DNA from: a virus
Taxonomy: Duplodnaviria; Heunggongvirae; Uroviricota; Caudoviricetes
Reading direction: 5' to 3' (one strand)
IMG/VR virus record: IMGVR_UViG_2648501437_000028
DNA length: 15,331 bases
In this document: piece by piece, positions 1 to 14,113 of the stretch
How positions within the stretch are numbered: position 1 is the stretch's first letter
Layout: each line of letters opens with the position of its first letter
Notes under the pieces: generated by a model
Told to the model about the DNA's origin: nothing
What the model saw: the letters and a program-made list of their open reading frames with translations, nothing else
Databases searched by the model: none
Translations under genes and position numbers: made by a program

Positions 1-165
1 ATGGCAAAGCCGATCATCACGCTCAATGGCCTAAAAATCGTCATTATGTTGGGAATGCTGGTCATTATTCTCTGCGGTATCCGTTTTGCCGCCGAGATCA
101 TCGTGCCGTTTATTCTCGCATTATTTATTGCTGTTATATATAACTTATTTCGCATAACACATTGA
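1..165 (+). pseudogene. tqsA: 5' fragment of tqsA (AI-2 exporter, YdgG); frame diverges after ~codon 45 and stops at 163-165, consistent with interruption by the inserted element
   Basis: Frame +1 from base 1 reads [45 protein letters not shown], which I recognise as the TqsA N-terminus, then IYNLFRITH-stop. Too short to appear in the ORF track. Confidence 0.55.
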
Positions 166-185
166 TTTAATTAAATAATTAACAC

Positions 186-233
186 CGCAAAAAGTGCCAA
201 AAATCGCAAAATGACTACACCAGTGACTACACC
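186..233. repeat. Phased A-tracts (CGCAAAAAGT GCCAAAAATC GCAAAAT) followed by tandem TGACTACACC x2 (212-221, 224-233)
   Basis: Read directly from the sequence; A5-6 tracts recur with 10-bp phase (bent-DNA signature), and a 10-bp direct repeat sits ~80 bp inside the inferred junction. Confidence 0.45.
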
Positions 234-251
234 GTTCGGTGCACTGTATGA

Positions 252-276
252 AACAACGTGGAACAAATAGACACAA
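252..276. promoter_or_regulatory. AACAA repeats phased at 10 bp (AACAACGTGG AACAAATAGA CACAA); the 15-mer AACAACGTGGAACAA is identical to 7715-7729
   Basis: Read directly; the same motif family recurs at 7713-7742 and, reverse-complemented, at 14021-14070. Confidence 0.45.
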
Positions 277-344
277 GAAATATACAGGCGGATCATCTTT
301 CCAGGGGGAAGCACACCAATTCATGAGGGGCGTTAATGTCGATA

Positions 345-609
345 TGGGGATCCCCACCTACCGGAATTTTTTTCCGGTTAAACGTTAATCAGGCTGGTGG
401 GCTTTACCTGTTCGGTAGGTGTTATGATTATCGTAATACCTTTCCCCCAATGGGGTAAAAGCATCAACCGTAACGAAAGTCGTTATGGTTGCCACTGATA
501 CCCCAAATTTGGGTATCACGAGTAAGCCCCAAAATCTGGGTGTTACTCTTACTACCCAAACTACGGGTAGTTTCCGTAGTTTCATGGTCGAGTTGCAGAT
601 CTGCAACTC
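345..609. repeat. Cluster of dyad symmetries: TGGGGATCCCCA (345-356), CCGGAA-T5-TTCCGG (361-377), CCCCCAATGGGG (444-455), GATACCCCAAATTTGGGTATC (497-517), CCCCAAAATCTGGG (527-540), CTACCC-AAACTAC-GGGTAG (552-570), GTAGTTTC x2 (567-583), perfect 20-bp palindrome GAGTTGCAGATCTGCAACTC (590-609)
   Basis: Read directly from the sequence; no ORF here has a credible start or composition. Confidence 0.5.
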
Positions 610-863
610 CCCCATTAACCACAGGCGAATTTCCGCCTTCGGTCATTCCTTAATCATCTGCGTAATCATAATGATTATTCAGCAAGCGCAATTTTGCGCT
701 TTGCTTAAAGTTCAGCGAGTTACCGCGCCGACTTCCTCAAATTGAGGTTTCCGAAAATATCAGCGGGTTAGCGATTAAGCTGACCATTAATTAAACTGCG
801 AAAATGTCGTAGTTGTGAGGGGTGTAGCCAACCCATTTTTGGGCCGTCGGGAATATCAACCAG

Positions 864-1145
864 TTACCGCCGCAACCGCTCCGGCTTCTTCCAGTGGTAC
901 GTTATTTTCTCCTTCTCCCGATACATCTCCACGCGGCGACGGTAGGCCAGCAACTCAAGAACTCTGGTTCGTATGTTGCGCATATCCACGCCATTAAGTT
1001 CTATACCATCACGGCGCATCACCTCAGCAACAACACGCGCATAGTTTTCGGCTGTCACGCTGTCCGGCTGCGTGGCCTGTTCGTCAGCCTGCTGGCTGAT
1101 TCCGGCAACGCGGCGGATTAATCCCGTTATTTCGGCTTCTGTCAT
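864..1145 (-). CDS. Hypothetical 93-aa protein, last gene of the packaging operon
   Basis: ORF track; ATG at 1145 preceded by GAGG; starts 13 bp after the terL stop. No recognisable motif. Confidence 0.5.
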   Translation of the reverse strand: MTEAEITGLIRRVAGISQQADEQATQPDSVTAENYARVVAEVMRRDGIELNGVDMRNIRTRVLELLAYRRRVEMYREKEKITYHWKKPERLRR

Positions 1146-1158
1146 GCTGCTGACCTCA

Positions 1159-2820
1159 TTACACCCCGCTAAATTCTTCCAGTTTCTGGCGGTGGCTGTC
1201 GCTTATATCAAAAGCAAAATCCTCATGCTCTGCCTGGAATGTACCAAACGCCATCAGCGCCGCCACGCTCGGGTCTATCTTGTTCGGTGATTTTTTCTTG
1301 TTCGGCTTGATATTGGCGTTCGCGTCACTCTGCATCACGACGTTACTCATCGACCAGGACAACACCGGATCGCCACGATGCACAATCACCCTGCGGTTAA
1401 CAAAAACTTCGAACGATTTCGCCGCCGGACTGAATCTGAGGTAGGTTTGCGGGAACGGCTCCACCTCAAAACCTGCCCCCTGTAATTGCGTTCTGAGATG
1501 CGTGGCGTTCCACGTATCAAAGCCCACCAGCCTGATATTAAATTTCTCCGCGTCCTGCATGATGTCATCTCTGATCCGGTCGTAATCAATGCAGTCGCCA
1601 GGCGTTGTGCGTATCCAGCCTGCTTTAGCCCACTGACGATAGATGGCGCGGTTTTTATTGGCGGGGTTCTGTAGCTGAAATTCCGGCAGATAGTGACGGG
1701 AAACCAGCATAATGGTTTTACCGACCGGAAAGGCATAGCACACGCTGGAAATATCGCTGGTTGATGATAAGTCCAGCCCCGCGTAACACTCCTGGCCGTG
1801 TAAATCTTCCTCCGTGAACGTTCCGGCACACTCAGCCCATGCGCCGTTACCCATCCACGGGGTAGCCCCCTGGCACCAGATATTAAATCGCTTTGTCATC
1901 ATCTCCACCCACTGCGACGGAATACCCCGCGCTTTCTGGATGGTTGAGGCCAGTTTTTCACGATCGACGGAAACATCAATATTAGGGTTCGCCTTTATCC
2001 ACATCGCCGGATCATCAACCTCGTTTTCGTCGTCCAGTTCGTAAATCAGTACAAAAATTGAATCGTTAACCTCTTCGCCGTCCAGGATCTGGCAGCAATA
2101 ATCATAGTGCTGCTTACAGGCTGAAACGACGTTGCTGCCTGATGTGGTAATGGCAAATAACAGCCCTTCGGGACGTGCGCCCATCCCCAGCTCAAGCGCG
2201 GAATAAACGCCGTTATCGGGGTGCAAGTGGTATTCGTCCACGATGGAAAGGCTGGGGTTTGTTCCCTCGATGGTTGCCGCTTTTGCTGCCAGCGGCTTTA
2301 ACAGGCTGTTGCTTTTCGGGTGTATCACCTTATGCGCCTGAATATTCACCCGCCTGCGTAACGGTCGGGATAAAAGGCACATCTGACGCGCATCATCAAA
2401 GACGATCCGCGCCTGGTCACGGCTCACCGCTGCGGTGTAGATATCCTGCTGACCGTTCTCCATAATCAGAAACCAGTTAGCCAGAATCGCGGCGGTCGTG
2501 GATTTCGCATTTTTGCGCGGCACTTCGATAAAGGCGCTCGTGTATTTGCGCCGTCCGGTGGCCTTAACCTTAAAGCCGAGGATGCACGCAAAGGCGAACT
2601 GCTGCCACGGCTCCAGCTCAATGGGTCTGCCACGCATCGGTCCTTTTACGTGCGGGCACACCCTGGAAAAGGCAATAAACCGCTCCACAACCTCACGATC
2701 GAACGTGTAAAGGGGGCTTTTAAGGTCCGAAAAGTACCGTTTAACGGCCTGTTTCAGCCGTTTACAGGCCGGAATTTTGCCCGTTTTTACGTCTTCTGCG
2801 TACTTATTCCAGGCGGTCAA
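1159..2820 (-). CDS. terL: Terminase large subunit (ATPase plus nuclease)
   Basis: 553 aa; Walker A-like PRKNAKST, Walker B-like LSIVDEYH, overall terminase-like layout. Start is TTG at 2820 with GAGGA 5 nt upstream, overlapping the terS end by 17 bp. Confidence 0.85.
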   Translation of the reverse strand: MTAWNKYAEDVKTGKIPACKRLKQAVKRYFSDLKSPLYTFDREVVERFIAFSRVCPHVKGPMRGRPIELEPWQQFAFACILGFKVKATGRRKYTSAFIEVPRKNAKSTTAAILANWFLIMENGQQDIYTAAVSRDQARIVFDDARQMCLLSRPLRRRVNIQAHKVIHPKSNSLLKPLAAKAATIEGTNPSLSIVDEYHLHPDNGVYSALELGMGARPEGLLFAITTSGSNVVSACKQHYDYCCQILDGEEVNDSIFVLIYELDDENEVDDPAMWIKANPNIDVSVDREKLASTIQKARGIPSQWVEMMTKRFNIWCQGATPWMGNGAWAECAGTFTEEDLHGQECYAGLDLSSTSDISSVCYAFPVGKTIMLVSRHYLPEFQLQNPANKNRAIYRQWAKAGWIRTTPGDCIDYDRIRDDIMQDAEKFNIRLVGFDTWNATHLRTQLQGAGFEVEPFPQTYLRFSPAAKSFEVFVNRRVIVHRGDPVLSWSMSNVVMQSDANANIKPNKKKSPNKIDPSVAALMAFGTFQAEHEDFAFDISDSHRQKLEEFSGV

Positions 2821-3160
2821 GCTCGTCCTCTTCTTCTGTTTCCGGTGGGTTTTTACGGCGGCTTATCGGGTCAAAACCGAGCAAGGAGGCCATTTTTATC
2901 ATCACCCTTTCAGCGTCTGATTTCGCGCTTAATGCGGGGTTTCTGCTCTCGCCGCCCTGACTGTTAACAATGCTGAACCCGCGCGCCGCAAGGTCTGCGA
3001 CGGCTTTCCGGTAAATGGAGTAGTTGACACAATACAGTTCCAGATTGCTCCAGTCGGCGGGGGTCAGGTCTCCCCGTTCCGCAAGCTGCCGCGATTTTTC
3101 CCGCCACTGCTTCACGGCGATGTCATCCAGGTAGGCGGGGGCTTTCGGTGGTCTTGCCAT
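2804..3160 (-). CDS. terS: Terminase small subunit (P27-like size and position)
   Basis: 118 aa directly upstream of and overlapping terL, downstream of HNH; acidic C-terminus. Assigned mainly by position and size. Confidence 0.6.
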   Translation of the reverse strand: MARPPKAPAYLDDIAVKQWREKSRQLAERGDLTPADWSNLELYCVNYSIYRKAVADLAARGFSIVNSQGGESRNPALSAKSDAERVMIKMASLLGFDPISRRKNPPETEEEDELDRLE

Positions 3161-3209
3161 GCTTATTTTTCGTCAGATTATTTTTCAAAAAATTCCCGTG
3201 CATAAAAAT

Positions 3210-3275
3210 TTGAGGAGGCGTTCGGTGCCCGGCGGGGTCGGGTTTGTCCTGAAAACGCCCCCCACCCCGTCATAC
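3210..3275. other. GC-rich block in the HNH-terS intergenic region; candidate cos / terminase recognition site
   Basis: GGTGCCCGGCGGGGTCGGG...ACGCCCCCCACCCCG lies in a ~290-bp gene-free gap between HNH and terS, where HK97-type cos sites sit. Position-based inference only. Confidence 0.25.
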
Positions 3276-3448
3276 AGCCTCATCAGCGATTGCGGAAACA
3301 TTCCATAACCTCGCGGTCACGGTCGGTTAATCGCTTCGCTGTGATGCGTTCTGCGCGTCCTGACGCTTTATCTTTATGCCCTGTTTCCTGTGTCTTCCAT
3401 GCGTCACGCTGCCTTATAAGTCCACGGATAAGGCGGTTTTGTTCCCGC

Positions 3449-3889
3449 TCATTCATCAGCGTCATACATCCAGTTATTGCGGTTAGCGGCCCGTTCTTCC
3501 TCTTCACGAAATCCACCTGCGGCACGCTTGCTTTTTGTTGCCGGATCAAGCCATTTCGTTTTCTGGTTATGACACGCCTGGCACAATGGTTGATGGTTCC
3601 ATTCGGGCCAGAAGAGAACATCATCACCGCCATTAATCGGGATAATGTGATCCACCACCACGGCGGGCGTATATATCCCCTTCTCAAGGCATCGCACGCA
3701 TAACGGGTTTTTACTCAGATACATGGCGCGGTATTTGTCCCACTGTCTGGAATATCCACGCGCGCGGCGGTGTCCTCGTCTGGCATCCTCTGCACGCCAT
3801 GCCGCCCGCCTGTGCTCCTCACACTTGCCGGATTTAACGCGCCTGTTACAGCCTGGTTCTGTGCATCGTCTTAATGGTTGCCACGGCAT
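3449..3889 (-). CDS. HNH endonuclease (packaging-associated)
   Basis: 146 aa; N-terminal Cys cluster CTEPGCNRRVKSGKCEEH and HNH core CVRCL...VVDHIIP...NHQPLCQACHNQK. Its ATG overlaps the connector stop. Confidence 0.85.
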   Translation of the reverse strand: MPWQPLRRCTEPGCNRRVKSGKCEEHRRAAWRAEDARRGHRRARGYSRQWDKYRAMYLSKNPLCVRCLEKGIYTPAVVVDHIIPINGGDDVLFWPEWNHQPLCQACHNQKTKWLDPATKSKRAAGGFREEEERAANRNNWMYDADE

Positions 3890-4185
3890 CAGTACACCCC
3901 CACATCACGGTAAGCCGTCCAGAGTGCGCCTATCGTCATGGGTACGCGTGTTTTTGCGTTATCCGCGACAATCTGGCGATTTTCATACAGGTGAGCGATA
4001 AACATCATGCAGCCAATCTTTATGGCTGGCGTGAACTCCAGCCCGTCATCAAAGCGCCTGCCTATGTGTATCTGGCACGCCTCAAGCGATGCGGCAATGT
4101 ATCCGCTGATTAACTGGTCTTCATCGTCGCCATCGATGCGGCAATGGAGTTTCACTTCTTCCAGGGTGATAAGTTCTTCTGTCAT
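3889..4185 (-). CDS. Head-tail connector (gp6-like) protein
   Basis: 98 aa between adaptor and HNH; ATGA overlap with the adaptor stop. Assigned by size, position and general resemblance. Confidence 0.55.
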   Translation of the reverse strand: MTEELITLEEVKLHCRIDGDDEDQLISGYIAASLEACQIHIGRRFDDGLEFTPAIKIGCMMFIAHLYENRQIVADNAKTRVPMTIGALWTAYRDVGVY

Positions 4186-4520
4186 TTTTCCGCGCCCTCA
4201 CGACAAAGAATTTCAAGGCGTGTCCTGGCGGCATCCGGCAGCGGCTGCCCGATGATATTCAGTACACGCCCCGCCAGCGGCCCCGTACTGACCTTTATCC
4301 GGCTGGTGGCGTTGATGTCCTTCCGGTACCGTATCCAGATCCTTACGGTACCAATCGCCAGCTCTGCGCCCGATGAAATGGCCTCCTTGCTGCTGACCAT
4401 GTTCACGCTTGCCCAGAGTGTGTGACCGTCCTCCCACGTTTCGAGTATTTCGCCGGTTATATCCCTGGTCTGTTTCAGGGTCTGAATCGTTATCCTGTCA
4501 CGCAGTCGCCCTATGTTCAT
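4182..4520 (-). CDS. Head-tail adaptor / head closure protein
   Basis: ORF track gives 4182-4562; I prefer the internal ATG at 4520, which overlaps the portal TGA (ATGA) and gives a ~112-aa product. Identity is by position after portal. Confidence 0.55.
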   Translation of the reverse strand: MNIGRLRDRITIQTLKQTRDITGEILETWEDGHTLWASVNMVSSKEAISSGAELAIGTVRIWIRYRKDINATSRIKVSTGPLAGRVLNIIGQPLPDAARTRLEILCREGAEK

Positions 4521-5728
4521 TCCGGTTTTTCTCCCTCGCTGATTTTTACTTCCTGTTTCCATGCCTGGCTGAACTCATCACCACCATCACGCGGTGACAG
4601 ACCTTCACGTTCGCGGGCTTCGTTCGGACACATAACGCCGGATTTGATGCCGCGCTCATAGGTGGCAAAGCGTTCGCCAGGTGTGGCCCGTAACAGGTCC
4701 GCGCTGTCAAACTCCACCTGATACCGGATACCAGGTACAGGCGAGGCCACCAGCAGGGCGTTTTTTATCTGCTGCTCAAAGTTCGCCAGCCACGGGCGCA
4801 TCGTCATGGTGAGAAATGCGCGGCTTGCCTCGCTGAAATTGCTGTAGGTGCTGTTGCTGTATTCCTGCAAAAAAATCGGCGAGACGTTGAACATTCGGGC
4901 GATGTCTTCAATGGTGAAGCGACGGGAGGCCAGCCATTCAGCATCCTGATTACTCATGCCCAGCTGCTGATAGCTCATACCCCCTTCAAGGATGGGCGTT
5001 TTTCCGGCGTTTCTGGCCCCTTTGTAGCGTTCCAGTGCGGCTAATGCCTGTTTGCCCTTCACGCCGTCCAGCCATTCGCCTGACGTGATAACCCCTGCCG
5101 CCATCATGCCATCACGCATCACGCTCGCGCCGTGGCGTTGTTGGGCCAGCCCAAGCCCCAGCGATTCGCGGCAGATGGTTACAGGTGAGCGCCCCATAAA
5201 GCCGTCATCCGTGGAGTAACGAAGGTGAAGTACTTCCCACGGTAAATAGTTGCGGGTGTTTCCGGTGTAGGCGTCAGTGATGCAGTAGCGCCAGTTGTGT
5301 TCGCCTGTCTGCTCCACGTTCACCGACTGCGGCGGGTAAGGATGTAAAGCCGCCGGAAAACCATCACGCCCCCACTGAATCACCGCATAAGCATTACCGT
5401 TTAACAGGCAGTGGCGGATCATCATTCGCTTAAACTGGTAGGGGGTTTGCCATGCGTTCGGGCGCTCGTTGAGGATGTGATCGACCGGATGAGAATCAAG
5501 CCACTCGCGGGCCTCCTTCCCCTTCTCATTGCGTACCAGGTACAGGTAACACGGCATGGTAGCCACCGCCTCAGAGATGACCGTCACGGCGTTCATGACG
5601 GCGGGCAGTGATTCCGCTGTCCCCGATGATACGTACTCACCCGCCCCCGTGTTCGATGTGCCAGCCAGCGCCATAAATTCATCCAGCGTCATGCTGCGCT
5701 GCTCTTTTTTTCTTCTGAAAGGCCACAT
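4517..5728 (-). CDS. Portal protein, HK97-like
   Basis: 403 aa, typical portal length and composition; GGGGGTG Shine-Dalgarno 5 nt before the ATG at 5728; immediately follows the protease. Confidence 0.8.
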   Translation of the reverse strand: MWPFRRKKEQRSMTLDEFMALAGTSNTGAGEYVSSGTAESLPAVMNAVTVISEAVATMPCYLYLVRNEKGKEAREWLDSHPVDHILNERPNAWQTPYQFKRMMIRHCLLNGNAYAVIQWGRDGFPAALHPYPPQSVNVEQTGEHNWRYCITDAYTGNTRNYLPWEVLHLRYSTDDGFMGRSPVTICRESLGLGLAQQRHGASVMRDGMMAAGVITSGEWLDGVKGKQALAALERYKGARNAGKTPILEGGMSYQQLGMSNQDAEWLASRRFTIEDIARMFNVSPIFLQEYSNSTYSNFSEASRAFLTMTMRPWLANFEQQIKNALLVASPVPGIRYQVEFDSADLLRATPGERFATYERGIKSGVMCPNEAREREGLSPRDGGDEFSQAWKQEVKISEGEKPE

Positions 5729-5729
5729 A

Positions 5730-6302
5730 TCACACCCCCGCTAAATCCACCCACCAGCGGCGATTATCCGCACGCGGCATTTTTTCGGGGTGCTGCTCAT
5801 ACAGGGAACGGCGGGCCAGCTCCACGCCGGAATCGGGGTAAGCCGGTACCGATGTAACGGTAATTTCGTACAGTTCCGCCACCAGCACGGTGCGCACGCA
5901 TGGATCTGTTGTGGTATCCCATACATCCTTACGGGAGCGAAAGCCAAAGCTCATCCCCGAGATGTCCCCACGCTTAACCAGTTCGATAACGTCGCGCCCT
6001 GTACTGGTATCCGGTGGGGTCAGTTCAAAGCGTAACCCTGTTTCGTCCTCTTCCAGTTTCAGCGTGCCGGAACGGGTGCGCCCCAGTAACATGCTGTGGT
6101 CATGCTCATACAGGCCGCGAACGTCATTACCCGCCGCAAGCCACTCAGTAAACGCCCCCCGCTGGAATTTTTCGTGAAACTCCCCCCATAGCAGTTCTGA
6201 AAGCTTATCCCAGCGAACAACGTAGCCCGTCAGCGTACCGGCTCCGCTGGTAGTGATTTCCGATGACCGGATTTCCATACTCTTCATAATTTTTTCACCC
6301 AT
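5730..6302 (-). CDS. Prohead maturation protease, HK97 family
   Basis: 190 aa with the HK97-protease-like stretch GDISGMSFGF and conserved His/Ser context. Start could be 6302 or the internal ATG at 6287. Confidence 0.8.
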   Translation of the reverse strand: MGEKIMKSMEIRSSEITTSGAGTLTGYVVRWDKLSELLWGEFHEKFQRGAFTEWLAAGNDVRGLYEHDHSMLLGRTRSGTLKLEEDETGLRFELTPPDTSTGRDVIELVKRGDISGMSFGFRSRKDVWDTTTDPCVRTVLVAELYEITVTSVPAYPDSGVELARRSLYEQHPEKMPRADNRRWWVDLAGV

Positions 6303-6341
6303 AAAACACTAAAGGGGCTTTTAAGCCCCTTCTGTATGCTG

Positions 6342-7499
6342 TTAATCGTCGTCCTGTGGCAGTTCCAGAATCTTGATCGCGTTCGAATCCACCACGCCAC
6401 CGCCTAAATATTTCTGCGTGAAAATTTTGATGAAGCCCGGCTCTGTGAGGTTGTCCGGTCTGGTGCGAACACCTGTTTCGTGATCAACAATGTAGTAACC
6501 GCGTTTGAAGTCACCCAGGGCAATAACGTTATCCGGCATAAACTCCAGATATTCGACCGGAAGGCCCAGTAACGTATCAGGATCACCCGCCTGTAAACGG
6601 TCGCGCCAGATGTAATCACCGTTCGCGTTCTTCACCTTCTGAAGTTTTGCCGCCGTCGTGGAGTTAACCACCCAGACCGCGTTTTTGCGGTATTTTTTAC
6701 GTAATGCAAATTTCAGGTCGATCAGCGGGTCCGCAGATGTCCACGCCAGAGATTCGGAAGGTTTAATTACCTGCAACGTACCAAAATCACGCTCTTTGTC
6801 GTTCTTCTCTGCACGGGGTACGGATAAAAAGCCTTTTGCTTTTTTGTCACCGTCGCCCACAACCAGATCGCTTTCTTCGGTTTCCGTGAAGTTGTCGCCA
6901 ATCTCGCCCGTCAGCCATGAAAGGATGTCCACATCGGAAAAATCCACGATTTCCTGCGTGGTGCGCGGGTACGCATAGACCGGATACAGCTTAATGCTCA
7001 CCTCGTTAATCTGCGGGGTGCTGGTCTGTTCGCGTGCCTTACCCTCTTCACCGTGGTTAACGGTCGCACCGCCAGCGGAAACAAGCTGCTTAAACTCGTT
7101 GCTGCTGATTTTCTTCACGGTACAGATGCGGCGCATGGTGGATTCATCCGTCAGCATTCGCATGATTTCGGTGTTCAGTTCGGGGATAACGGTATAACCA
7201 CCATCAGCGGGAACGCCTGTACTTAATGCGCGGGTTTCACCTGTCAGAATGTAGTGACGTAGTTCGGCTGGGTCAGTGGTCTGACTGCTTTTACCTGGCT
7301 TGCTGCGCTCTTCGTCTGCAATGGCTTCAAGGCGGGAAATGTCTTTATCGAGGGATTCAGCTTTAGCGCGTAATTCGTCAAATTTTGCGCCCTCAGCATC
7401 GTTAAGACTGCGGTTTTCTTTTTCCGCGTTCTCCAGCATGTCGCGCATCTGATTTTTAATGGCGGTTTTCTGCTGGCGTAATTCGATTATTCTCGGCAT
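6342..7499 (-). CDS. Major capsid protein, HK97 fold, with N-terminal coiled-coil delta/scaffold-like domain
   Basis: 385 aa; charged, coiled-coil-like N-terminal ~100 aa (LRAKAESLDKDISRLEAIADEE) then a capsid-like body; no separate scaffold gene. Confidence 0.85.
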   Translation of the reverse strand: MPRIIELRQQKTAIKNQMRDMLENAEKENRSLNDAEGAKFDELRAKAESLDKDISRLEAIADEERSKPGKSSQTTDPAELRHYILTGETRALSTGVPADGGYTVIPELNTEIMRMLTDESTMRRICTVKKISSNEFKQLVSAGGATVNHGEEGKAREQTSTPQINEVSIKLYPVYAYPRTTQEIVDFSDVDILSWLTGEIGDNFTETEESDLVVGDGDKKAKGFLSVPRAEKNDKERDFGTLQVIKPSESLAWTSADPLIDLKFALRKKYRKNAVWVVNSTTAAKLQKVKNANGDYIWRDRLQAGDPDTLLGLPVEYLEFMPDNVIALGDFKRGYYIVDHETGVRTRPDNLTEPGFIKIFTQKYLGGGVVDSNAIKILELPQDDD

Positions 7500-7712
7500 A
7501 AAAAAAGTCCTGGGGTTAAGTAAGGAACTCCAGGACGCGGCAAAAACTCAACCGTTTTTCATAAGGAAATCAGCAATCGCACCGATCGTTTTCCCGCCTG
7601 GTAATGAATATTGGCGAGAACATTAACAGGCGGAAAAGTGGCCCCAGCGTCCTGGCACCACGGGCGAGAATAATCATGATTCAGTTCGGGTAAAATATGC
7701 CGATCCGCTCAG

Positions 7713-7742
7713 TGAACAACGTGGAACAACCACGAACAAATA
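7713..7742. promoter_or_regulatory. Three 10-bp units GAACAACGTG GAACAACCAC GAACAAATAA upstream of the capsid operon
   Basis: Read directly; shares the 15-mer with 252-266; lies between the terminator after the PerC-like gene and the capsid leader. Confidence 0.45.
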
Positions 7743-7761
7743 ATTTACAAAACATGACAAA

Positions 7762-7779
7762 AAGCCGGATTGCTCCGGC
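7762..7779 (-). terminator. Probable intrinsic terminator after the PerC-like gene
   Basis: AGCCGGA-TTGC-TCCGGCT stem-loop followed on the minus strand by TTTTTGT. Confidence 0.5.
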
Positions 7780-7786
7780 TGTGTGA

Positions 7787-8059
7787 TTATCTGTCCTGGT
7801 AATTTCGCCATATTTCATTACCAGCACCATCCATACCCATTTCGGCATAAGTGCGATCGACCGCCTTTTTCAGGTCTCCGTAGTTATCCGGCGGCTCCGG
7901 TGGCCTCTGTGCCTTCCTGGAACATTCCAGCCGTCGCATCGTGATGTGATGCCGTTCCTTGTCTGTCTCCACCAGTTGCATGACTTCACCCCATCGCGCC
8001 GACGCTCTCCGGTAAAAGCCTTTCGCCTCCAGTTCTTCCGCTATGCGGTCATGTACCAT
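7787..8059 (-). CDS. PerC-family transcriptional regulator-like protein
   Basis: About 90 aa from the ATG at 8059 (the track start at 8068 is GTG); AEELEAKGFYRRASARWGEVM resembles the PerC/Pch N-terminal signature; GAGGGGTGGGG Shine-Dalgarno upstream. Confidence 0.6.
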   Translation of the reverse strand: MVHDRIAEELEAKGFYRRASARWGEVMQLVETDKERHHITMRRLECSRKAQRPPEPPDNYGDLKKAVDRTYAEMGMDGAGNEIWRNYQDR

Positions 8060-8071
8060 CGTCCCCACCCC

Positions 8072-8482
8072 TCAGAACGGAATATCATCACCGTAAGGGT
8101 CATCGCCTCCCGCTGGTGGCTGATTACCCTGTGTGCCTGTGGTCTTGCGTCGGCTCCCACCAGGACGTGCCGCACGGGCACTGATTACGCTGTCTGCAAT
8201 AACCTGATAACCCTGCCGCGTTTCCCCGTTCTGTCCGGTCCACTGGCTGACCTGCATCGTGCCGGATACGCTGGCAACGTCGCCTTTTTGATGTTTAGCC
8301 AGGAAGTCGGCCTGCTTACCAAATGCGATGACCGATAGCCATAACGTCGCCTGTCCATCCTGTGCCTGGCTGCATGGCAGCGATACCGCCATACGCGCCA
8401 GCGTCATCGGTGTACCCTTGCTGGTCTGTTTTACCTGCGGGTCGTCCACCAGCCGCCCGTAAGCTGCTATCTGTGCTGTCAT
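8072..8482 (-). CDS. ssb: Single-stranded DNA-binding protein
   Basis: 136 aa; Gly/Pro/Gln-rich tail ending in the acidic DDIPF motif characteristic of SSB; ATGA overlap with the upstream gene. Confidence 0.8.
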   Translation of the reverse strand: MTAQIAAYGRLVDDPQVKQTSKGTPMTLARMAVSLPCSQAQDGQATLWLSVIAFGKQADFLAKHQKGDVASVSGTMQVSQWTGQNGETRQGYQVIADSVISARAARPGGSRRKTTGTQGNQPPAGGDDPYGDDIPF

Positions 8483-8757
8483 GATTCCACCTCTCCGGTT
8501 TTAACGTTGATGGTTGTTACCTGTTCCGCTTCGGCAATCTCCCGCTCTGTCAGCGTGGCAAAATTTGCCGCCGTCGTGGTCATGAATGCGCTTATCAGTT
8601 CGGGATGTGCTTTCGCGTATCCTTCCCCCGCGTGGCGGTCTATCGTTCTGATTGCCACCTTTAAAGCGTGCTCTGTCATGTCTAACGCGCGATATTTCGG
8701 TTCTGTTCTGTCTCTGCGTTTTTTGAGTGATTTATTAAATTTCCCTGAAGTGTGCAT
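8479..8757 (-). CDS. Hypothetical 92-aa protein, first gene downstream of the putative ori
   Basis: ORF track; ATG at 8757 preceded by GAGGGGG; stop overlaps the ssb start. Confidence 0.5.
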   Translation of the reverse strand: MHTSGKFNKSLKKRRDRTEPKYRALDMTEHALKVAIRTIDRHAGEGYAKAHPELISAFMTTTAANFATLTEREIAEAEQVTTINVKTGEVES

Positions 8758-8804
8758 ATTTATTTTTACCCCCTCGTTTAAAAAGTTTTGAGTTGTGCCT
8801 CCCC

Positions 8805-9030
8805 TTGTCTACCTTATCTACCTTAGTGGCCCTCATACCAGTAATGGCGCGGCTTTCAGCGGGGTAGAGTGCTTTTATCCACTATCTACCCCGTGTCTAC
8901 CTCCCTGTCTGATTCAGGTAAAATCAGGTAGAGAGGGTAGATAGTGGGTAGACAGTAAAAAAAGGTTATCTACCTAACTTAATGCACTGAATTAAATGTA
9001 TTTTTCTTTACTCAGGTAGACAGGGTAGAC
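8805..9030. repeat. Iteron array (about 12 copies of GGTAGAC/GTCTACC-type 7-8-mers in both orientations) with flanking AT-rich stretches; putative replication origin
   Basis: GTCTACC 8805, TATCTACC 8813, GGTAGAG 8861, TATCTACC 8881, GTCTACC 8893, CAGGTAGA 8923, GGGTAGAT 8933, GGGTAGACAG 8944, TTATCTACC 8964, CAGGTAGACAGGGTAGACAG 9011-9030; lies immediately 3' of the primase gene. Confidence 0.6.
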
Positions 9031-9045
9031 AGCAATTACAAAAAA

Positions 9046-10800
9046 TTATAAAAACGCGTCGCACTCGTCTGTTGTTATTGCGTTAGTCTGCGTTACTCCC
9101 TTAACTTTCCGCGTAATATATTCATGTCCGTAAACTTTCGCGGCTGGCTTCATAGCCTTGCCAAAGTCATTTACGTTTAGCGGTTTGCTCCTGCCTGCGT
9201 ACGCCATAAACGCCAGATAGACGCGGTAAAGGCTGTTTCTGGTCGTGTACTTCACTGAATCGCCACCGCCGCCCATCATCAGGCCGCGTGCTTCCTCCAG
9301 AAAATTCAGGAACTGGCAAAACTCAATAACCGGATCCGTCTGTTGCTTTATTGCCAGAGCTTCATCACCGTCACGCTGTTCCAGTAGTAAAGCCCGTGCC
9401 TTCTCAGGGTCGGTAAAGTTCGCCAGCAATCGGCGGATAATGACAGGGATTTCAGCCGCGATCTTTTCCGGTAGCTCCCTGTCTTTTTCGGCCTCACTGA
9501 CGATATTGTCGAAACGGAAAATCACGCGACGACGTGCCACACCTCCGGCCCGTTCGGTGAATATCATCGGGTTATTGTTGGTCGCCAGCACCACCGCCCT
9601 GATTACCGCCGTGAAACGCTTTTCGTATTTCGGGTTAATTTCCACGGGGTCACCGCCCGTGATTTTCTTGATGCCCGTTCCTTCGCCTGTATATTTCGGC
9701 TGGTCAGCCAGGACGATAAGACGACTCCCGACAACCTGCGCACGTCCACCAGCATCATCAAGCGATGTCATTTCAGCGCTTACCGTGTTCTGTTTCCCTG
9801 CCAGAAGGCTGGCTATGTGTGTGAATGTACTTTTACCGCTCCCGCCGTCTCCGGTGGCCTCAATAAACATCTGCCAGTCGTACCGGTTCGCCATAATCAT
9901 GTACAGCGCGGCACATATACGCATCATCTTGCGCGGGTCTTTTCCGGCTGCGTGCTCAAGCCATTTATGAAAGTTTGGCGCGTTATCGCGGATGTTCTCC
10001 CCTGGTGCTGGTGGCGTGTACTCAATGCCGTTGTGCGTGGTGATCCAGTTCTCCGGCGTGTGCGGGGAAAATTCCCCCGTTTTCAGGTCAAGCGCACCAT
10101 TGGCGAACGGCAACAAATCGCCGGACGGCTCGCCCATTGGTTCGGCAATAACTTTTAACGCTTCCACGGCGTTATTGATTACGCGCTTGCTGAAAGTGGC
10201 CCTGTGCTCTGAATAGATCGCCACCATTTCGCGGCTAAGTTCCATTGTGCTGACCGGACACCATACCCCGCCGCGCCATACGTGAACGATTTCACTTTCA
10301 GGATGTACGCAAACGCCATCAAAGCGATCGGCAAGCAGCTGCGCGCGCTCACTGTCCGCCATCTGCGAAAGTTGCGCCTTTTGCTTTACCGGAAGCTCAA
10401 TGACCAGACCATCAGAAAGATTCTGGCGCTCACGGGCCAGATATTCGCGCCAGTTCTCCACCTTCTGACCGTGCATACCATCAGGGTAAAAATTTGCATC
10501 CTGTACGCCTGCCGCCGCCAGCTTCTGACCAATCGCCTTTATCATTACTGGCGCAAGATATCCGGCCCTGAATATGCGCACGGATTTTCTGCCTTCCGGC
10601 ACAATTTGCAGCTTATCCAGTTCGGATAACTGCTGCTCCCCAAGCCACACAGGAGGCTCATTATCTCCGGCCATACGCGCGTCATGTTCCTGCCATTGTT
10701 TTGCGTGTGACCAGGCATCACTACCCGCAAAAATAATGACTTCTGTTTCTTTGTGTTTTATGCCGCGTGACTGCTGTTTTACGTTCGGTGCCAGTTTCAT
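9046..10800 (-). CDS. Primase/helicase, P4-alpha-like (TOPRIM-like N-terminus plus SF3/D5-type NTPase)
   Basis: 584 aa; Walker A GDGGSGKST, Walker B-like LIVLADQ; N-terminal acidic primase-like segment; ATGA overlap with the upstream gene. Confidence 0.8.
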   Translation of the reverse strand: MKLAPNVKQQSRGIKHKETEVIIFAGSDAWSHAKQWQEHDARMAGDNEPPVWLGEQQLSELDKLQIVPEGRKSVRIFRAGYLAPVMIKAIGQKLAAAGVQDANFYPDGMHGQKVENWREYLARERQNLSDGLVIELPVKQKAQLSQMADSERAQLLADRFDGVCVHPESEIVHVWRGGVWCPVSTMELSREMVAIYSEHRATFSKRVINNAVEALKVIAEPMGEPSGDLLPFANGALDLKTGEFSPHTPENWITTHNGIEYTPPAPGENIRDNAPNFHKWLEHAAGKDPRKMMRICAALYMIMANRYDWQMFIEATGDGGSGKSTFTHIASLLAGKQNTVSAEMTSLDDAGGRAQVVGSRLIVLADQPKYTGEGTGIKKITGGDPVEINPKYEKRFTAVIRAVVLATNNNPMIFTERAGGVARRRVIFRFDNIVSEAEKDRELPEKIAAEIPVIIRRLLANFTDPEKARALLLEQRDGDEALAIKQQTDPVIEFCQFLNFLEEARGLMMGGGGDSVKYTTRNSLYRVYLAFMAYAGRSKPLNVNDFGKAMKPAAKVYGHEYITRKVKGVTQTNAITTDECDAFL

Positions 10801-11096
10801 TTTTTACCCCTGAATCCGTTAATCATGGTTTTCAGCTTCTGGATGTTTGCCCGTGCCCTGGCGTTGCTGGTGGACACGTTATGCGGCGCGGTCTGTACCA
10901 GAGAAAAATCACGCCGGAACTGATAAACAGGCATCACGCAATCATATTCGTAACCTTCACGGCGGTAGGTTACGCGCCGTTCTTCCACGCCCTTAATCAT
11001 TACCGTGCCGCCGTACTGGTCGCGGTAAATATCGCCGCGCGTAAATTTAGGGTGAGTGTTGCCACTGGCAGTTAAGCCAGAATATTTAAGTTTCAT
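10797..11096 (-). CDS. Hypothetical 99-aa protein, translationally coupled to the primase
   Basis: ORF track; GGAGA Shine-Dalgarno before the ATG at 11096. Confidence 0.5.
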   Translation of the reverse strand: MKLKYSGLTASGNTHPKFTRGDIYRDQYGGTVMIKGVEERRVTYRREGYEYDCVMPVYQFRRDFSLVQTAPHNVSTSNARARANIQKLKTMINGFRGKK

Positions 11097-11101
11097 TATT
11101 T

Positions 11102-11335
11102 TTATTCTCCGGTGTGCTGTTCTTTATATCTGTCGTGCAATAGATCTATTTCTTGCAGTTCCATTATTACAGGCTCAAGAAGCGTTATTAATGCCGTGGC
11201 AATTCTTGATTTTTGTTTGTCGCGTTCATTGTCGCCAAGTGTTTCAAGCCATATGCGCAATATTTCCAGCATGTTTTCACTGTGAGAAAGTGCAAGAAAT
11301 GCGCGGTCTATTGTTTCGTGGTAAATATCACGCAT
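11102..11335 (-). CDS. Hypothetical 77-aa protein
   Basis: ORF track; GAGGA before the ATG at 11335. Confidence 0.5.
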   Translation of the reverse strand: MRDIYHETIDRAFLALSHSENMLEILRIWLETLGDNERDKQKSRIATALITLLEPVIMELQEIDLLHDRYKEQHTGE

Positions 11336-11401
11336 GGCTTACATCCTCAGGAAATTTTCTTCTATAACGCGCCTCTGCCACATATTCCGCATAATCGGCG
11401 G

Positions 11402-11560
11402 CGATATTCAGTACATCAAGCCCCGTTGATTTATATTCTCTCGTGGAAAGTAAGAAAAAGCCGCTCTAATAAGTTCTGGCATTGACGAAAGCGCATCAGC
11501 CGCATCATCAGGAACGCCGGAAAATTCCTGTTTCAGGGAATTAAAACGATCATCACGCAT
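11402..11560 (-). CDS. Possible 52-aa small protein (below the track length cutoff)
   Basis: ATG at 11560 preceded by AGGGGGG and overlapping the upstream stop (ATGCGTGA); translates MRDDRFNSLKQEFSGVPDDAADALSSMPELIRAAFSYFPRENINQRGLMY. Confidence 0.3.
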
Positions 11561-11918
11561 GTTTACCCCCCTGAATGACCTGATAACCGCAACTGGTCAG
11601 CAACTCGATAAATTCCGGCAGTGTGCCGAAACAGCAATCATCACGCAGCCGTTCACAGGATACCTCGACGCCGTTTTCGTAGTGACTCACCATACATCCG
11701 GTAAAATGCAGATCATCATCGTGATGGCTCGTTGACGGCTTAATCAGTCGCGCACGTTCCGCCAGTTCCAGCAATGCTTCAACGCTTCCGGCAATTGCAC
11801 CATCCGGCAGGTGATAATTACGCACTATGCGCCCGTTCTCCACATTGACCAGCAACTGCCCGGTAAATTTCTCATCAAACTGAATGCTGTTAAGGTCAGA
11901 AATTGACAGATTATGCAT
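11553..11918 (-). CDS. Hypothetical ~121-aa protein
   Basis: ORF track gives 11553-11936; the internal ATG at 11918 has a perfect AGGAGG 7 nt upstream and overlaps the upstream stop. Confidence 0.5.
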   Translation of the reverse strand: MHNLSISDLNSIQFDEKFTGQLLVNVENGRIVRNYHLPDGAIAGSVEALLELAERARLIKPSTSHHDDDLHFTGCMVSHYENGVEVSCERLRDDCCFGTLPEFIELLTSCGYQVIQGGKHA

Positions 11919-12351
11919 GGTGCACCTCCTGCACATCAGCCATGATAATTTTTCCGGCCTTATCCAGTGCCTGATCGGCTTTTAGCTGCACAAATGCTAA
12001 ATGGAAGATGCATTCTGATTCTCTGGCTGCGTGTTTATGCGCCCTGTCAGCAATAACAGAAATATCAATAAGCGCGTGCATCAGCGTAGTGAGCGCGGCG
12101 GCGGCTGCGTCCGGTGTGGTTTTATTGCACATGTACCCCTCCGCATTTTTTTCGTTAGAAATAAGCGTTCTTCTTTCCTGTTCATCGCTCAGGAATACGC
12201 AGACCTCACCGCTAAGGCGTTTAAGTAAGCCGATGATTGCCCCTGATTCGCTGTCGGTCATCATGCTAGGGTAATCCTCTGCCAGTGCGCAAATAACTTC
12301 GATTTGGTGGGCGCGTTCTGCTGCCTGTTGTAGTGTGATTTCCTGGCTCAT
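11911..12351 (-). CDS. Hypothetical 146-aa protein
   Basis: ORF track; ATGA overlap with the upstream 66-aa ORF. Confidence 0.5.
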   Translation of the reverse strand: MSQEITLQQAAERAHQIEVICALAEDYPSMMTDSESGAIIGLLKRLSGEVCVFLSDEQERRTLISNEKNAEGYMCNKTTPDAAAAALTTLMHALIDISVIADRAHKHAARESECIFHLAFVQLKADQALDKAGKIIMADVQEVHHA

Positions 12352-12548
12352 AAGCCTACCCCCTGACGAATACGGGCAGCAAATACCATCACGCAGCCAG
12401 CCGGAGATTGCTGGCGTGCTTCCTGTTCGCTGGTGGCCTCAATGGTAATCACGCGCGGTTGTGCCGTGCTCAGGGCGATAAAACGCCAGATGTATTTATT
12501 CAGGTTGTGCGAGTCCCGCCCTTGCGGGTGTGTGGTATGATTTCTCAT
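12348..12548 (-). CDS. Hypothetical 66-aa protein, first gene of the leftward operon
   Basis: ATG at 12548 preceded by GAGGTAG; it is the 3' part of the 384-aa track ORF, whose upstream extension I reject. Confidence 0.45.
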   Translation of the reverse strand: MRNHTTHPQGRDSHNLNKYIWRFIALSTAQPRVITIEATSEQEARQQSPAGCVMVFAARIRQGVGL

Positions 12549-12583
12549 AGCTACCTCGATACTCTCGTTATCGTTGGTGGTTA

Positions 12584-12724
12584 GAAGCCCCGTTACTGCT
12601 CCAACAGTGCGGGGCTTCGTCGTTTCAATTGCTGAATTGCATGTATCAGCACTTGTGGTATTCACATTACATTTAGGTGAATACCATTTCAAGTCTTTTT
12701 TGGTATTCACTTTTGTATTACACT
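12584..12724. promoter_or_regulatory. Divergent control region: long hairpin GAAGCCCCG...CGGGGCTTC (12584-12618) and operator-like repeats TGGTATTCAC-N11-GTGAATACCA (12656-12686), TGGTATTCAC (12701-12710), GTATTACAC (12715-12723)
   Basis: Read directly; lies between the start of the leftward operon (12548) and the start of the RHH gene (12754). Confidence 0.5.
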
Positions 12725-12753
12725 GCATCCCGTTATTAATGGGAGGTGCAAAC

Positions 12754-13059
12754 ATGTCCAGGAGTTCTGTTAACAATAAGTCACAGCAACTGAATGCCAG
12801 ATTTCCACATGAAGTAGTGAGTGGCATTGAGGCATCCCTACAGTCAGGGGAAACTAAAGCGAATTTTATAGTTACGGCTGTACGCGGTGAGATCGCCCGG
12901 CGCCAGGCAGAAGGAAGTGGAGAAAATCCCCTGGTTTCTTCGCTCGATGCACTGGCGCAGGTGGAAAAACTCGGAATCAAAGCCGCCGAGGAGATCGGGC
13001 AGCTCGTCACTGTCGCACGTGAAGAACTCCAGCGCCGCAAGACCAAAGAACCAGAGTAA
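12754..13059 (+). CDS. Ribbon-helix-helix (CopG/Arc/MetJ-like) DNA-binding protein; candidate repressor of the switch
   Basis: 101 aa from the ATG at 12754 (GGGAGGTG Shine-Dalgarno); N-terminal NARFPHEVVSGIEASLQSGETKANFIVTAVRGEIARR fits a beta-strand/helix/helix pattern; the track ORF starts further upstream at 12574. Confidence 0.55.
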   Translation: MSRSSVNNKSQQLNARFPHEVVSGIEASLQSGETKANFIVTAVRGEIARRQAEGSGENPLVSSLDALAQVEKLGIKAAEEIGQLVTVAREELQRRKTKEPE

Positions 13060-13116
13060 TCACCATCAGCGCCGTGGTGTAAGGTATTACGGCGCATTGC
13101 TATGCAGGACAACACA

Positions 13117-13290
13117 ATGACCGATAAAGAATTGACCAAAACATTATCACCGGCACGGAAAAGACGGCGCAGAAAGATAGAGCATGAATCAGAAAGATTC
13201 GCGCCATGTGCTTTTGCCCTTGAGCAATTCCTTAAAGAGTACAGGGAAAAGCGCTCATTGCAGGTATGGCAACGAACTGAACCAGACTGA
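13117..13290 (+). CDS. Small, highly basic 57-aa protein
   Basis: ATG at 13117 with AGGAC upstream (track ORF starts at 13102); contains the RKRRRRK run; function unknown. Confidence 0.4.
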   Translation: MTDKELTKTLSPARKRRRRKIEHESERFAPCAFALEQFLKEYREKRSLQVWQRTEPD

Positions 13291-13385
13291 TTGCATTGCC
13301 CACCAGCCTGATAACGGCTATCATCCCCGTGCTTATGTTTGGGATCACACACACAAACGGCGCAGCGGGTTATCTGTTCAGAAAG

Positions 13386-13413
13386 GCGGCTCCATTTCGG
13401 GGCCGCTTTTTTT
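13386..13413 (+). terminator. Intrinsic terminator, possibly bidirectional, between the convergent plus-strand pair and alpA
   Basis: GCGGCTCC-ATTTC-GGGGCCGC stem (one G-U pair) followed by TTTTTTT on the plus strand; A-run on the other side. Confidence 0.6.
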
Positions 13414-13559
13414 ATACCTGAAAAACCCCAATTTTGTTGTTTTTCAGTTTCACCAGGGCGAACGAATCCCCGCCCACGTTCTGGCGTATATTCAATCTTC
13501 ATGGTTATAGCTCTGTGTTCAGATGATTGATGTGTGGCGGCTGCGTGCCGCCAGCGTGA

Positions 13560-13748
13560 TTAATGAACTGCCTTGCAGCTATCCTTCCAGGCCAGAACCT
13601 CGGATAAAGACCAGCCAACGGAACGACCGCCAAGTTTACGACGTGATGGGAATTGTCCGGCCTTTTCCAGGCGGTAGCGACACGTACGGCTAAGGCCGGT
13701 TAGTTTTTCGCATTCTTTTTCACGTATAAACCGATCAGTGCTTAACAC
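13560..13748 (-). CDS. alpA: AlpA/Vis-family (excisionase-like) regulator
   Basis: LTGLSRTCRYRLEKAGQFPSRRKLGGRSVGWSLSEVLAWK matches the AlpA-type winged-HTH pattern. I prefer the GTG start at 13748 (AGGGGGG 5 nt upstream, ~62 aa) over the track TTG start at 13829. Confidence 0.7.
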   Translation of the reverse strand: MLSTDRFIREKECEKLTGLSRTCRYRLEKAGQFPSRRKLGGRSVGWSLSEVLAWKDSCKAVH

Positions 13749-14020
13749 TATTGCCCCCCTTTCGTTTCTTAAAGAGTCATCAGGTGTCTTATTGTGTCGT
13801 ATTGTTCCCGCTAGAGTGATGAATGGCAAATACTGAGGATGTATGATTTACAGAAAATGAAACAGTAAGAATAAAATCTTTTAAATTCATGTTAATACAA
13901 AGGCATAAAATATTGTTCCATGCCTTTTTTCTCGCTCTTTAAAGAGTGATTCGCTAGTGTACAAAAAACCAGTAACACATTAAAAATCAGCTACTTATAA
14001 ATCCGTACGCTTTTTCGCCT

Positions 14021-14070
14021 CTTGTTCGTAGTTGTTCCACATTGTTGCTCATTGTTGCACGTTGTATCTG
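14021..14070. promoter_or_regulatory. Five TTGTT-containing 10-bp units in tandem (CTTGTTCGTA GTTGTTCCAC ATTGTTGCTC ATTGTTGCAC GTTGTATCTG)
   Basis: Read directly; TTGTTCCAC is the reverse complement of the GTGGAACAA core at 258-266 and 7721-7729; located in the int-alpA intergenic region. Confidence 0.5.
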
Positions 14071-14080
14071 TTCGCATATC

Positions 14081-14096
14081 CAGTATGCGCATACTG
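14081..14096. promoter_or_regulatory. Perfect 16-bp palindrome CAGTATGCGCATACTG just 3' of the int stop
   Basis: Read directly; no T-tract on the side that would make it an int terminator, so more likely a protein-binding site. Confidence 0.35.
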
Positions 14097-14113
14097 AAAA
14101 AACACGAAAAAAA

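Follow-up and report, generated by a model that had tools for sequence, protein, structure and literature searches.

Phage lambda integrates through attP, a site with the elements P1, H1, P2, X1/X1.5/X2, F and H2, using a heterobivalent integrase and a bend imposed by integration host factor (IHF) between the core and arm sites. The lambda arm sites, two on P and three on P', differ between the arms in number and orientation, and the sites for the directionality factor Xis form a short phased array on one arm only, far from int. Phage-inducible chromosomal islands (PICIs) and capsid-forming PICIs carry virulence and defence genes between enterobacteria, and their integration and excision have been treated as a black box. 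In the helper-embedded PICIs (HE-PICIs), attP contains a doubled motif, tgTGTATTGCantgTGTATTGCa, present as two co-oriented copies per attP at 81 ± 2 and 132 ± 2 nt from the centre, and this doubled motif was reported not to be found in other PICIs (PMC10111431, NAR Genom Bioinform 2023). Here we describe the attachment-site arm at the left end of a 15,331-nt stretch of viral DNA (IMG/VR record IMGVR_UViG_2648501437_000028; hereafter the window), most of which is an island inserted into the Escherichia coli gene tqsA. An initial annotation had flagged positions 166-300 of this DNA as a bent-DNA and direct-repeat region.

Small regulators acting at such sites have been characterized in several systems. 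The attL site of KplE1 (CPS-53) has Int arm sites beside three TorI sites with a period of about 10 nt, all mapped experimentally (PMC2951348, PLoS Genet 2010). Phage 186 Apl is a directionality factor that acts on helically phased repeats both at att and at promoters, and helically phased short direct repeats provide the criterion by which directionality-factor sites are recognized (PMC7498355). The AlpA homologue cited for PICIs is P4 Vis (PMC6092414). In the PICI EcCICFT073, AlpA activates its own promoter region and its overproduction triggers int-dependent excision, while the activity of Pint is unchanged by AlpA (Fillol-Salom 2018, PMC6092414). A literature search found no report of AlpA binding to att for any PICI.

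Comparison of occupied, empty and excised sites suggests, with good confidence, that positions 138-278 of the window form the int-distal attachment-site arm of a capsid-forming PICI in tqsA, on which integrase (Int), IHF and AlpA would act by the mechanism proposed below. Four points are established: where the crossover lies, that the two arms are contiguous in excised DNA, that the same module is present on both arms, and that its geometry is fixed across five families of sites.

Bases 1-137 are the 5' end of tqsA (which encodes an autoinducer-2 transporter) on the + strand, as judged by identity to the uninterrupted gene in thousands of E. coli genomes. Of 5426 complete E. coli genomes, 5424 contain the 1-137 stretch and approximately 188 have a left end like that of the window, and in the sampled genomes with uninterrupted tqsA the match breaks off at exactly base 137. 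The initial annotation had inferred an insertion point near 166; it was correct that the insertion is adjacent to the flagged stretch, but identity with tqsA ends 29 nt to the left of that position. The rest of the window corresponds to a 15.7-kb island of strain FORC_069, with 99.95% identity over 1-12377 and 99.78% over 13020-15331, while the intervening 640 nt or so (12378-13019) differ. The FORC_069 island is annotated with an integrase, an AlpA-type regulator, a primase, SSB, PerC, a major capsid protein, a prohead protease, a portal protein, connectors, an HNH endonuclease and the small and large terminase subunits (TerS and TerL), and its annotation contains no tail genes and no lysis genes. 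The combination of int, alpA and primase genes with a capsid and terminase set in about 15 kb identifies it as a capsid-forming PICI; on this sequence comparison, the window is such a satellite inserted in tqsA. It is also collinear with Sp7, a prophage-like element of Sakai, and identity is 87-97% in most blocks. Sp7 is a 15.5-kb element with the gene content of EcCIEDL933, and it excises, circularises and is packaged in vivo (PMC2669165).

Within tqsA the insertion falls after codon 45, and the gene is not rebuilt by the element: the shortened open reading frame (ORF) enters element DNA and stops at the TGA at 163-165, and FORC_069 has a pseudogene annotation for the 3' part of tqsA. Carriers are probably without TqsA, the gene being inactivated by the insertion.

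Aligning the left junction of the FORC_069 element, which is 99.9% identical, with the empty site and the right junction defines a direct repeat, TGCTGTTAT, located at 129-137 of the window and again beside int. The excised junction, in which the proximal arm is followed by TGCTGTTAT and the distal arm, is present in two independent assemblies. One (IMG/VR UViG_3300045988_152974, 11,098 nt; L011) has a 119-nt terminal overlap, as is typical for a circular assembly; the other (CYGL01000683.1, a metagenome contig of 11,271 nt; L015) contains the junction internally. Both read ...AACACTAAATGATAAAATGCTGTTATATATAACT... through proximal arm, core and distal arm. The junction expected for the excised circle of the present element is GATAAAATGCTGTTATATATAAC; an exact search of viral contigs for this predicted attP junction gave no match, and a degenerate pattern was needed. 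A metagenome scan for two doubled arm motifs 200-230 nt apart returned ten contigs, of which only L015 is a real attP, the other nine being unrelated low-complexity tandem repeats resembling ACTACACC, the unit of the arm motif described below. The initial annotation had proposed that the excised junction and the empty chromosomal site would define the core. Both were found in public data (L011 and L015, and uninterrupted tqsA, respectively), and the core lies at 129-137, not far away.

L011 and L015 carry the tqsA-targeting int/attP module on a classical PICI of about 11 kb, with lambda-type capsid and decoration genes in place of the capsid-forming cargo. Comparison with the window indicates that the integration module is common to different PICI types.

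The crossover could be placed more precisely by reading both junctions in six further relatives inserted at four other sites (phoQ/roxA, smrA/abgR, clpS/cspD and yifB). In all five att families, (G/T)ATAAA(A/T) is followed by a 7-nt spacer and then by an imperfect inverted copy, and the block of attP/attB identity includes those 7 nt in every case. The strand-exchange overlap is therefore placed on the spacer, TGCTGTT at 129-135, within the 129-137 identity block. By symmetry with the C site (G/T)ATAAA(A/T) across the overlap, the sequence ATATATA at 136-142 is a candidate core-type Int site, C', whose counterparts in the relatives read ATTTATA, TTTTATC or ATTTATG. Although we infer the positions of the overlap and of C' from symmetry, this overlap puts every arm feature at an identical distance across the families. 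Relative to its centre, the stretch flagged initially spans +31 to +168 nt; since the core adjoins it, the stretch lies inside an attP arm. It had been suggested to be the P or P' arm, and occupied sites, empty sites and attP contigs agree in placing the core next to it. Being far from int, it is of P type by the lambda convention.

The most conspicuous feature of this arm is a doubled motif at 210-233 (+), made up of the 12-nt units aaTGACTACACC and agTGACTACACC. The motif GACTACACC occurs twice at 212-233, and the tandem 10-bp repeat that had been noted there is exact: TGACTACACC occupies 212-221 and 224-233 with a period of 12 nt. An exact short-offset repeat of at least 10 nt arose in 16 of 2000 dinucleotide shuffles of 166-300, and the whole window contains two such repeats. 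Within the window, exact ACTACACC is found in the att arm only, while copies with one mismatch number 15 against 6.8 expected. At 812-830 (-), about 690 nt from the core, the arm motif recurs imperfectly and in inverted orientation (TGGCTACACCCCTCACAAC), perhaps by chance.

The int-proximal arm lies beyond the end of the window and was read from FORC_069, since the complete E. coli genomes do not include the one from which the window comes (the best match to the int end is 99.3% identical over 87% of it). From the int start to the core it reads GAAAAAGTGACTACACCAGTGACTACACCG...GTGAAACAAGCTGGAACAAGG...ATCACAAAT, and it contains the same doubled motif followed by an array of AACAA boxes, in the same orientation as at 210-276 of the window. 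Local alignment of the two arms gives a score of 67, against 18.9 ± 2.4 (maximum 30) in 1000 shuffles, and the two modules are direct repeats of about 76-80% identity. By eye, the proximal arm also shows a second, core-proximal run of four ACA-centred boxes spaced by 10 nt. In FORC_069, PGAP annotates a 60-aa "hypothetical protein" (WP_001332680.1; L001 3450-3632) over the proximal arm, from inside the core to the int start; the call is probably spurious and the DNA beneath it a region for protein binding.

The positions of these modules were compared in seven distal and seven proximal arms from the five sites (tqsA, yifB, phoQ/roxA, smrA/abgR and clpS/cspD), the clpS distal arm being taken from VL40 and the clpS proximal arm from CREC-629. 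ACTACACC is invariant in the seven relatives. On the distal side it lies at +82 and +94 from the overlap centre in all seven arms; on the proximal side the doubled motif lies at -151/-139 and ends 131 nt from the centre, again in all seven. Measured to the near edges, the doubled motif is thus 80 nt (distal) and 131 nt (proximal) from the centre in seven relatives each. This agrees with the proposal of the initial annotation that direct repeats near the core are integrase arm-type or directionality-factor sites, as both the doubled motif and the AACAA array recur on the other arm and hold fixed positions in the seven relatives.

Homology between elements delimits the distal arm. In elements with unrelated downstream cargo (SRY149, TUM1881 and VL40), homology extends to about 278, just past the third AACAA box, and is followed by divergence; in Sp7 and CFT073, which have another core, homology starts at 156, at a predicted IHF site. 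These limits define a functional arm of approximately 138-278, slightly off the 166-300 marked initially. The whole int-distal attP arm would thus be 138-278, part of attR in the PICI convention, and judged by these comparisons the flagged stretch is that arm, the equivalent of the P arm of lambda.

The IHF consensus AATCAATGTGTTA (WATCAANNNNTTR) is matched exactly at 155-167 (-) and is followed by an A/T-rich stretch at 168-185. There are two exact matches to this consensus in the 15.3 kb, against 0.62 expected. In all seven distal arms YAA-N4-TTGAWW lies at exactly +23 from the overlap centre, and the consensus in the relatives is exact or has one mismatch. Beyond it, the phased A-tracts that had been placed at 186-213 are present as A5 at 189-193, A5 at 199-203 and A4 at 208-211 (+), a predicted intrinsic bend at 189-211. 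The 10-nt periodicity of AA over 45 nt from position 173 is the highest of the whole 15.3 kb (99.99th percentile), and the curvature peak of a wedge model at 199 is the second highest in the window (99.95th percentile), an approximate result obtained with parameters after Bolshoy 1991. Three A-tracts in helical phase and high predicted curvature, the features by which bent DNA is recognized, are therefore both found. A-tracts 2 and 3 (AAAAATCGCAAA) are kept in six of the seven aligned distal arms, Sp7 reading AAAAACAGCAAA there with two bases different; A-tract 1 is kept in three of the seven, and L011 and L015 interrupt the A5 run (CCATAAATCG). With one of the tracts broken in L011 and L015, the intrinsic bend may be dispensable. 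The idea of bent DNA is thus reasonable in view of the strong predicted curvature, but only two of the three tracts are conserved, and the IHF consensus at 155-167, which the initial annotation did not list, appears to be the better-conserved bending element.

Next to the doubled motif lie three boxes of AACAA type with a 10-nt period (GAAACAA, GGAACAA and GACACAA) at 250-276 (+), which are probable AlpA boxes. The array had been described as AACAA repeats at 252-276: AACAA is found at 252-256 and 262-266, exactly 10 nt apart, and the third box, at 272-276 with the same spacing, reads CACAA. The full boxes (250-256, 260-266 and 270-276) are short direct repeats one helical turn apart inside att. 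ACAA is found at +121, +131 and +141 in six distal arms, and VL40 (clpS type) has it at +111, +121 and +131, in the same helical register. The pattern RAACAA-N4-RAACAA with at most one mismatch occurs seven times in the window against 0.53 expected, and none of 200 shuffles reached seven. None of the three flagged features is likely to be accidental. A box scan located an array of five to six AACAA boxes with a 10-nt period between int and alpA (14022-14075, -), two more boxes of this type just upstream of the alpA start (13792-13807, -) and three upstream of the capsid operon (7714-7739, +; TTGTTC in gene sense). The CFT073 element has counterpart arrays of six to seven boxes (L007 16700-16780) and of three boxes (L007 16480-16510). 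In clpS-type relatives, whose AlpA is 63% identical, CGAAC(A/C) boxes take these places both on the att arms (the distal array and the two proximal ones) and upstream of alpA. By eye, the last box upstream of the capsid operon supplies the -35 element of a promoter-like TTGTTC-16-TATTTT that follows the perC terminator hairpin (within 7680-7745), and these boxes may constitute an AlpA-dependent late promoter.

The boxes are connected to AlpA indirectly, by their presence in the alpA promoter region, which responds to AlpA in EcCICFT073, by the CGAAC boxes that accompany a diverged AlpA, and by the int-dependent excision that follows AlpA overproduction in EcCICFT073. The repeats had been regarded as att features; they do lie in the att arm, but the AACAA boxes also occur at promoters of the element and are not att-specific, which argues for AlpA rather than Int as the protein that reads them. 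They are probably AlpA sites, at which AlpA would be an activator at promoters and a directionality factor at att. The AlpA of the window (13560-13748, -; 62 aa; Pfam Phage_AlpA, 1.5e-16) is a winged-helix regulator and putative excisionase that is 89-94% identical to the AlpA of CFT073 and of three other relatives inserted at the yifB and smrA sites.

The doubled motif, by contrast with the boxes, probably comprises Int arm-type sites. The integrase gene (14114-15331, -) encodes a tyrosine integrase with an N-terminal arm-DNA-binding domain (Pfam Arm-DNA-bind_3, PF13356, residues 4-91, E = 1.4e-18; Phage_integrase, 2.9e-16). The flank of the motif varies with this domain: (A/G)TGACT is paired with an Int N-domain reading SVKYLTSGKL (window, E203449 and L011), and ATTAACT with one reading SVRHSTSGLL (CFT073, Sp7, SRY149, TUM1881 and CREC-629). 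E203449 is informative in that it combines an AlpA of CFT073 type with a motif flank of window type; the 5' flank therefore tracks Int, not AlpA. Int is favoured as the reader since it has an arm-binding domain, ACTACACC is confined to att, the four half-sites would suit a tetramer and the flank covaries. As a separate observation, the Int of E203449 (L010 16815-18041), compared with the window at 14117-15331, is a mosaic: the first 45 or so residues of this yifB-targeting enzyme match those of the window (KPAEKNTFYSDGGNLSVKYLTSGKL), and from about alignment residue 110 on it is of the smrA-targeting type. It seems that the arm-binding and core-specifying parts are exchanged separately.

Several points weigh against the arm and its proposed protein partners as described. 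Every assignment of a protein to a site is a prediction from sequence, and a search of open-access texts turned up no paper in which Int, AlpA or IHF sites are mapped for this clade of PICI integrases. The proximal arm is the sequence of FORC_069, not of the window. The relatives are close (Int 75-91% identical), so that conservation alone is weak evidence, and the covariation comes down to one diverged AlpA and a pair of flank variants. Conservation of the A-tracts is limited to tracts 2 and 3, and L011 and L015 break one of the tracts. AACAA boxes lie upstream of int in EcCICFT073, yet AlpA has no effect on Pint there. Finally, the description of the equivalent doubled motif of HE-PICIs does not decide between Int, AlpA and some other protein as its reader (PMC10111431). 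The readers could accordingly be exchanged, with AlpA or another protein on ACTACACC and the Int arm domains on the AACAA boxes or elsewhere, and about 25 nt separate the proximal doubled motif from the int ribosome site downstream of it, a possible position for a regulator. Such an exchange is unlikely on present evidence. The number of half-sites, four, would match a tetrameric recombinase. The alpA promoter region, whose counterpart in EcCICFT073 responds to AlpA, contains AACAA arrays but no exact ACTACACC; in E203449 the motif flank goes with the Int N-domain and disagrees with AlpA; and directionality-factor sites usually take the form of short direct repeats in helical phase (PMC2951348, PMC7498355).

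The similarity of the two arms raises the question of whether the distal module is a passive duplicate, a scar of tandem insertion or exchange, with only the proximal copy of any importance. The modules are indeed direct repeats, and they can recombine, as seen in E. coli CREC-629 (L009 7519-7640). This strain carries two identical PICIs in tandem with a 10,487-nt period, and their internal junction is a hybrid, consisting of proximal arm up to the first AACAA box and then distal arm, with no core, which suggests homologous exchange between arm modules. A scar is nonetheless very improbable as the origin of the distal module: the distal copy lies at exactly +82 from five different overlaps with the IHF consensus at +23, and it is kept beside unrelated cargo, with homology ending right after it. 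The HE-PICI clade, moreover, has the same two-copy geometry with an unrelated motif, which points to selection rather than a common scar. Derivation of the distal module from the int end of a second element was ruled out, as no homology extends past the module, which sits at an exact distance from each of five different cores.

That the motifs are transcription signals (a leftward operon end or a rightward antisense promoter) or part of a small coding gene (ORF 145-357, -) has very little to commend it: a promoter-like TAGACA-17-GATCAT at 268-296 (+), antisense to the element genes, overlaps the third AACAA box and a 70-codon ORF covers the region, but the promoter scan falls below shuffles (1 versus 2.3), the ORF has neither a Pfam match nor an annotation in FORC_069, and a module duplicated at fixed distances from the core is left unexplained.

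The data presented above have led us to propose a model for the int-distal arm and its proximal counterpart whereby four ACTACACC half-sites, two per arm and 12 nt apart, would be held by the N-terminal arm-binding domains of four Int protomers. IHF at 155-167, together with the A/T-rich stretch and the phased A-tracts, would fold the arm back, and the folded arm would let arm-bound Int reach the core sites beside TGCTGTT. Beside each doubled motif, AlpA would bind cooperatively to AACAA boxes phased at 10 nt, and so would double as transcription activator and directionality factor for excision. The model offers a simple account of the published AlpA-driven excision in which int transcription does not change.

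A bolder extension, which we put forward tentatively and would not yet favour over its negation, is that a complete cassette of two Int arm sites and phased AlpA boxes flanks the core on either side, in one orientation and at rigidly kept distances; that AlpA, induced by the helper, switches on genes and at the same time licenses excision; that the motif is rewritten between clades while the geometry is kept; and that the repeats give rise to tandem arrays. If this is true, imperfect direct repeats of approximately 76-85 nt lie at both ends of the integrated element, and recombination between them can produce tandem arrays whose junctions are hybrids, as in CREC-629. In these islands the long repeats at the ends are arm modules and should not be taken for the att core. 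The map of overlap, core sites, IHF site, four arm sites and AlpA boxes, all predicted, is testable at the level of single bases.

The remaining features of the window lie outside the arm. All genes of the element point leftward, and the ATG of int marks the end of the window; in relatives the annotated int start is a GTG 12 nt past the window end. A search of genome contigs with the integrase returned a single close Shigella locus only. Scans of the window for tRNA genes and Rfam families gave no match, so the att site is not of the tRNA type and no known RNA is encoded. A sigma-70 consensus scan found no convincing promoter upstream of int, and its one weak match in 1-1200 is below the shuffle expectation. 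Pfam gave no match for the small ORFs at 145-357, 385-615 and 485-745, which were treated as non-coding. Dense nested inverted repeats fill 450-620, for example 499-531/537-569 and 581-599/600-618; they have no Rfam match, and part of them recurs in the PICI of CREC-629, which carries unrelated cargo (L009 8000-8100). Just downstream of the last gene are three 18-nt direct repeats resembling AATATCAGCGGGTTAGCG, at 708-725, 756-773 and 852-869, spaced by 48 and 96 nt, and the other exact IHF consensus of the window lies at 854-866. The 18-nt repeats and this IHF consensus are possibly a packaging or replication site.

Set against the described systems, the region is an ordinary kind of recombination site that is unusually regular. 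Its attL-type counterpart overlaps the upstream region of int as in KplE1 IntS/TorI, where IHF is needed; the probable Int arm sites here adjoin blocks of putative directionality-factor sites, as the mapped ones do there, and the clpS-type relatives have in their CGAAC boxes the complement of GTTCG, the TorI core. The differences from KplE1 are that the sites there were mapped by experiment, while those here are predicted; that TorI sites have been described on attL only, while boxes are found here on both arms; and that TorI and IntS repress PintS, while AlpA is without effect on Pint in EcCICFT073. The putative arrangement of AlpA resembles that of Apl, and also of P2 Cox and P4 Vis, in that a small protein would act on direct-repeat sites one helical turn apart at both att and promoters; unlike Apl, which represses promoters, the AlpA of PICIs activates its own. 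Compared with lambda, the whole predicted module of two Int sites and three to four boxes is present here in the same orientation on both arms.

The closest likeness is to the HE-PICIs. Both are Gram-negative PICIs with int followed by alpA, and both have a tandem 8-nt core with a 12-nt period in two co-oriented copies per attP, at about 81 nt (int-distal) and about 132 nt (int-proximal) there and at 80 and 131 nt here, assuming near-edge measurement. In contrast, the motif is ACTACACC here and the unrelated TGTATTGC there; the integrases belong to different clades, and the targets are chromosomal genes here and prophage late genes there; and the AACAA arrays and IHF consensus found here are not described for HE-PICIs (PMC10111431). 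The same geometry with an unrelated motif indicates that the architecture is common and the recognition sequence clade-specific. The doubled-motif 81/132-nt architecture of helper-embedded PICIs thereby comes to include PICIs of the classical and capsid-forming types as well, over five or more chromosomal sites, which implies a general attP design with swappable recognition sequences.

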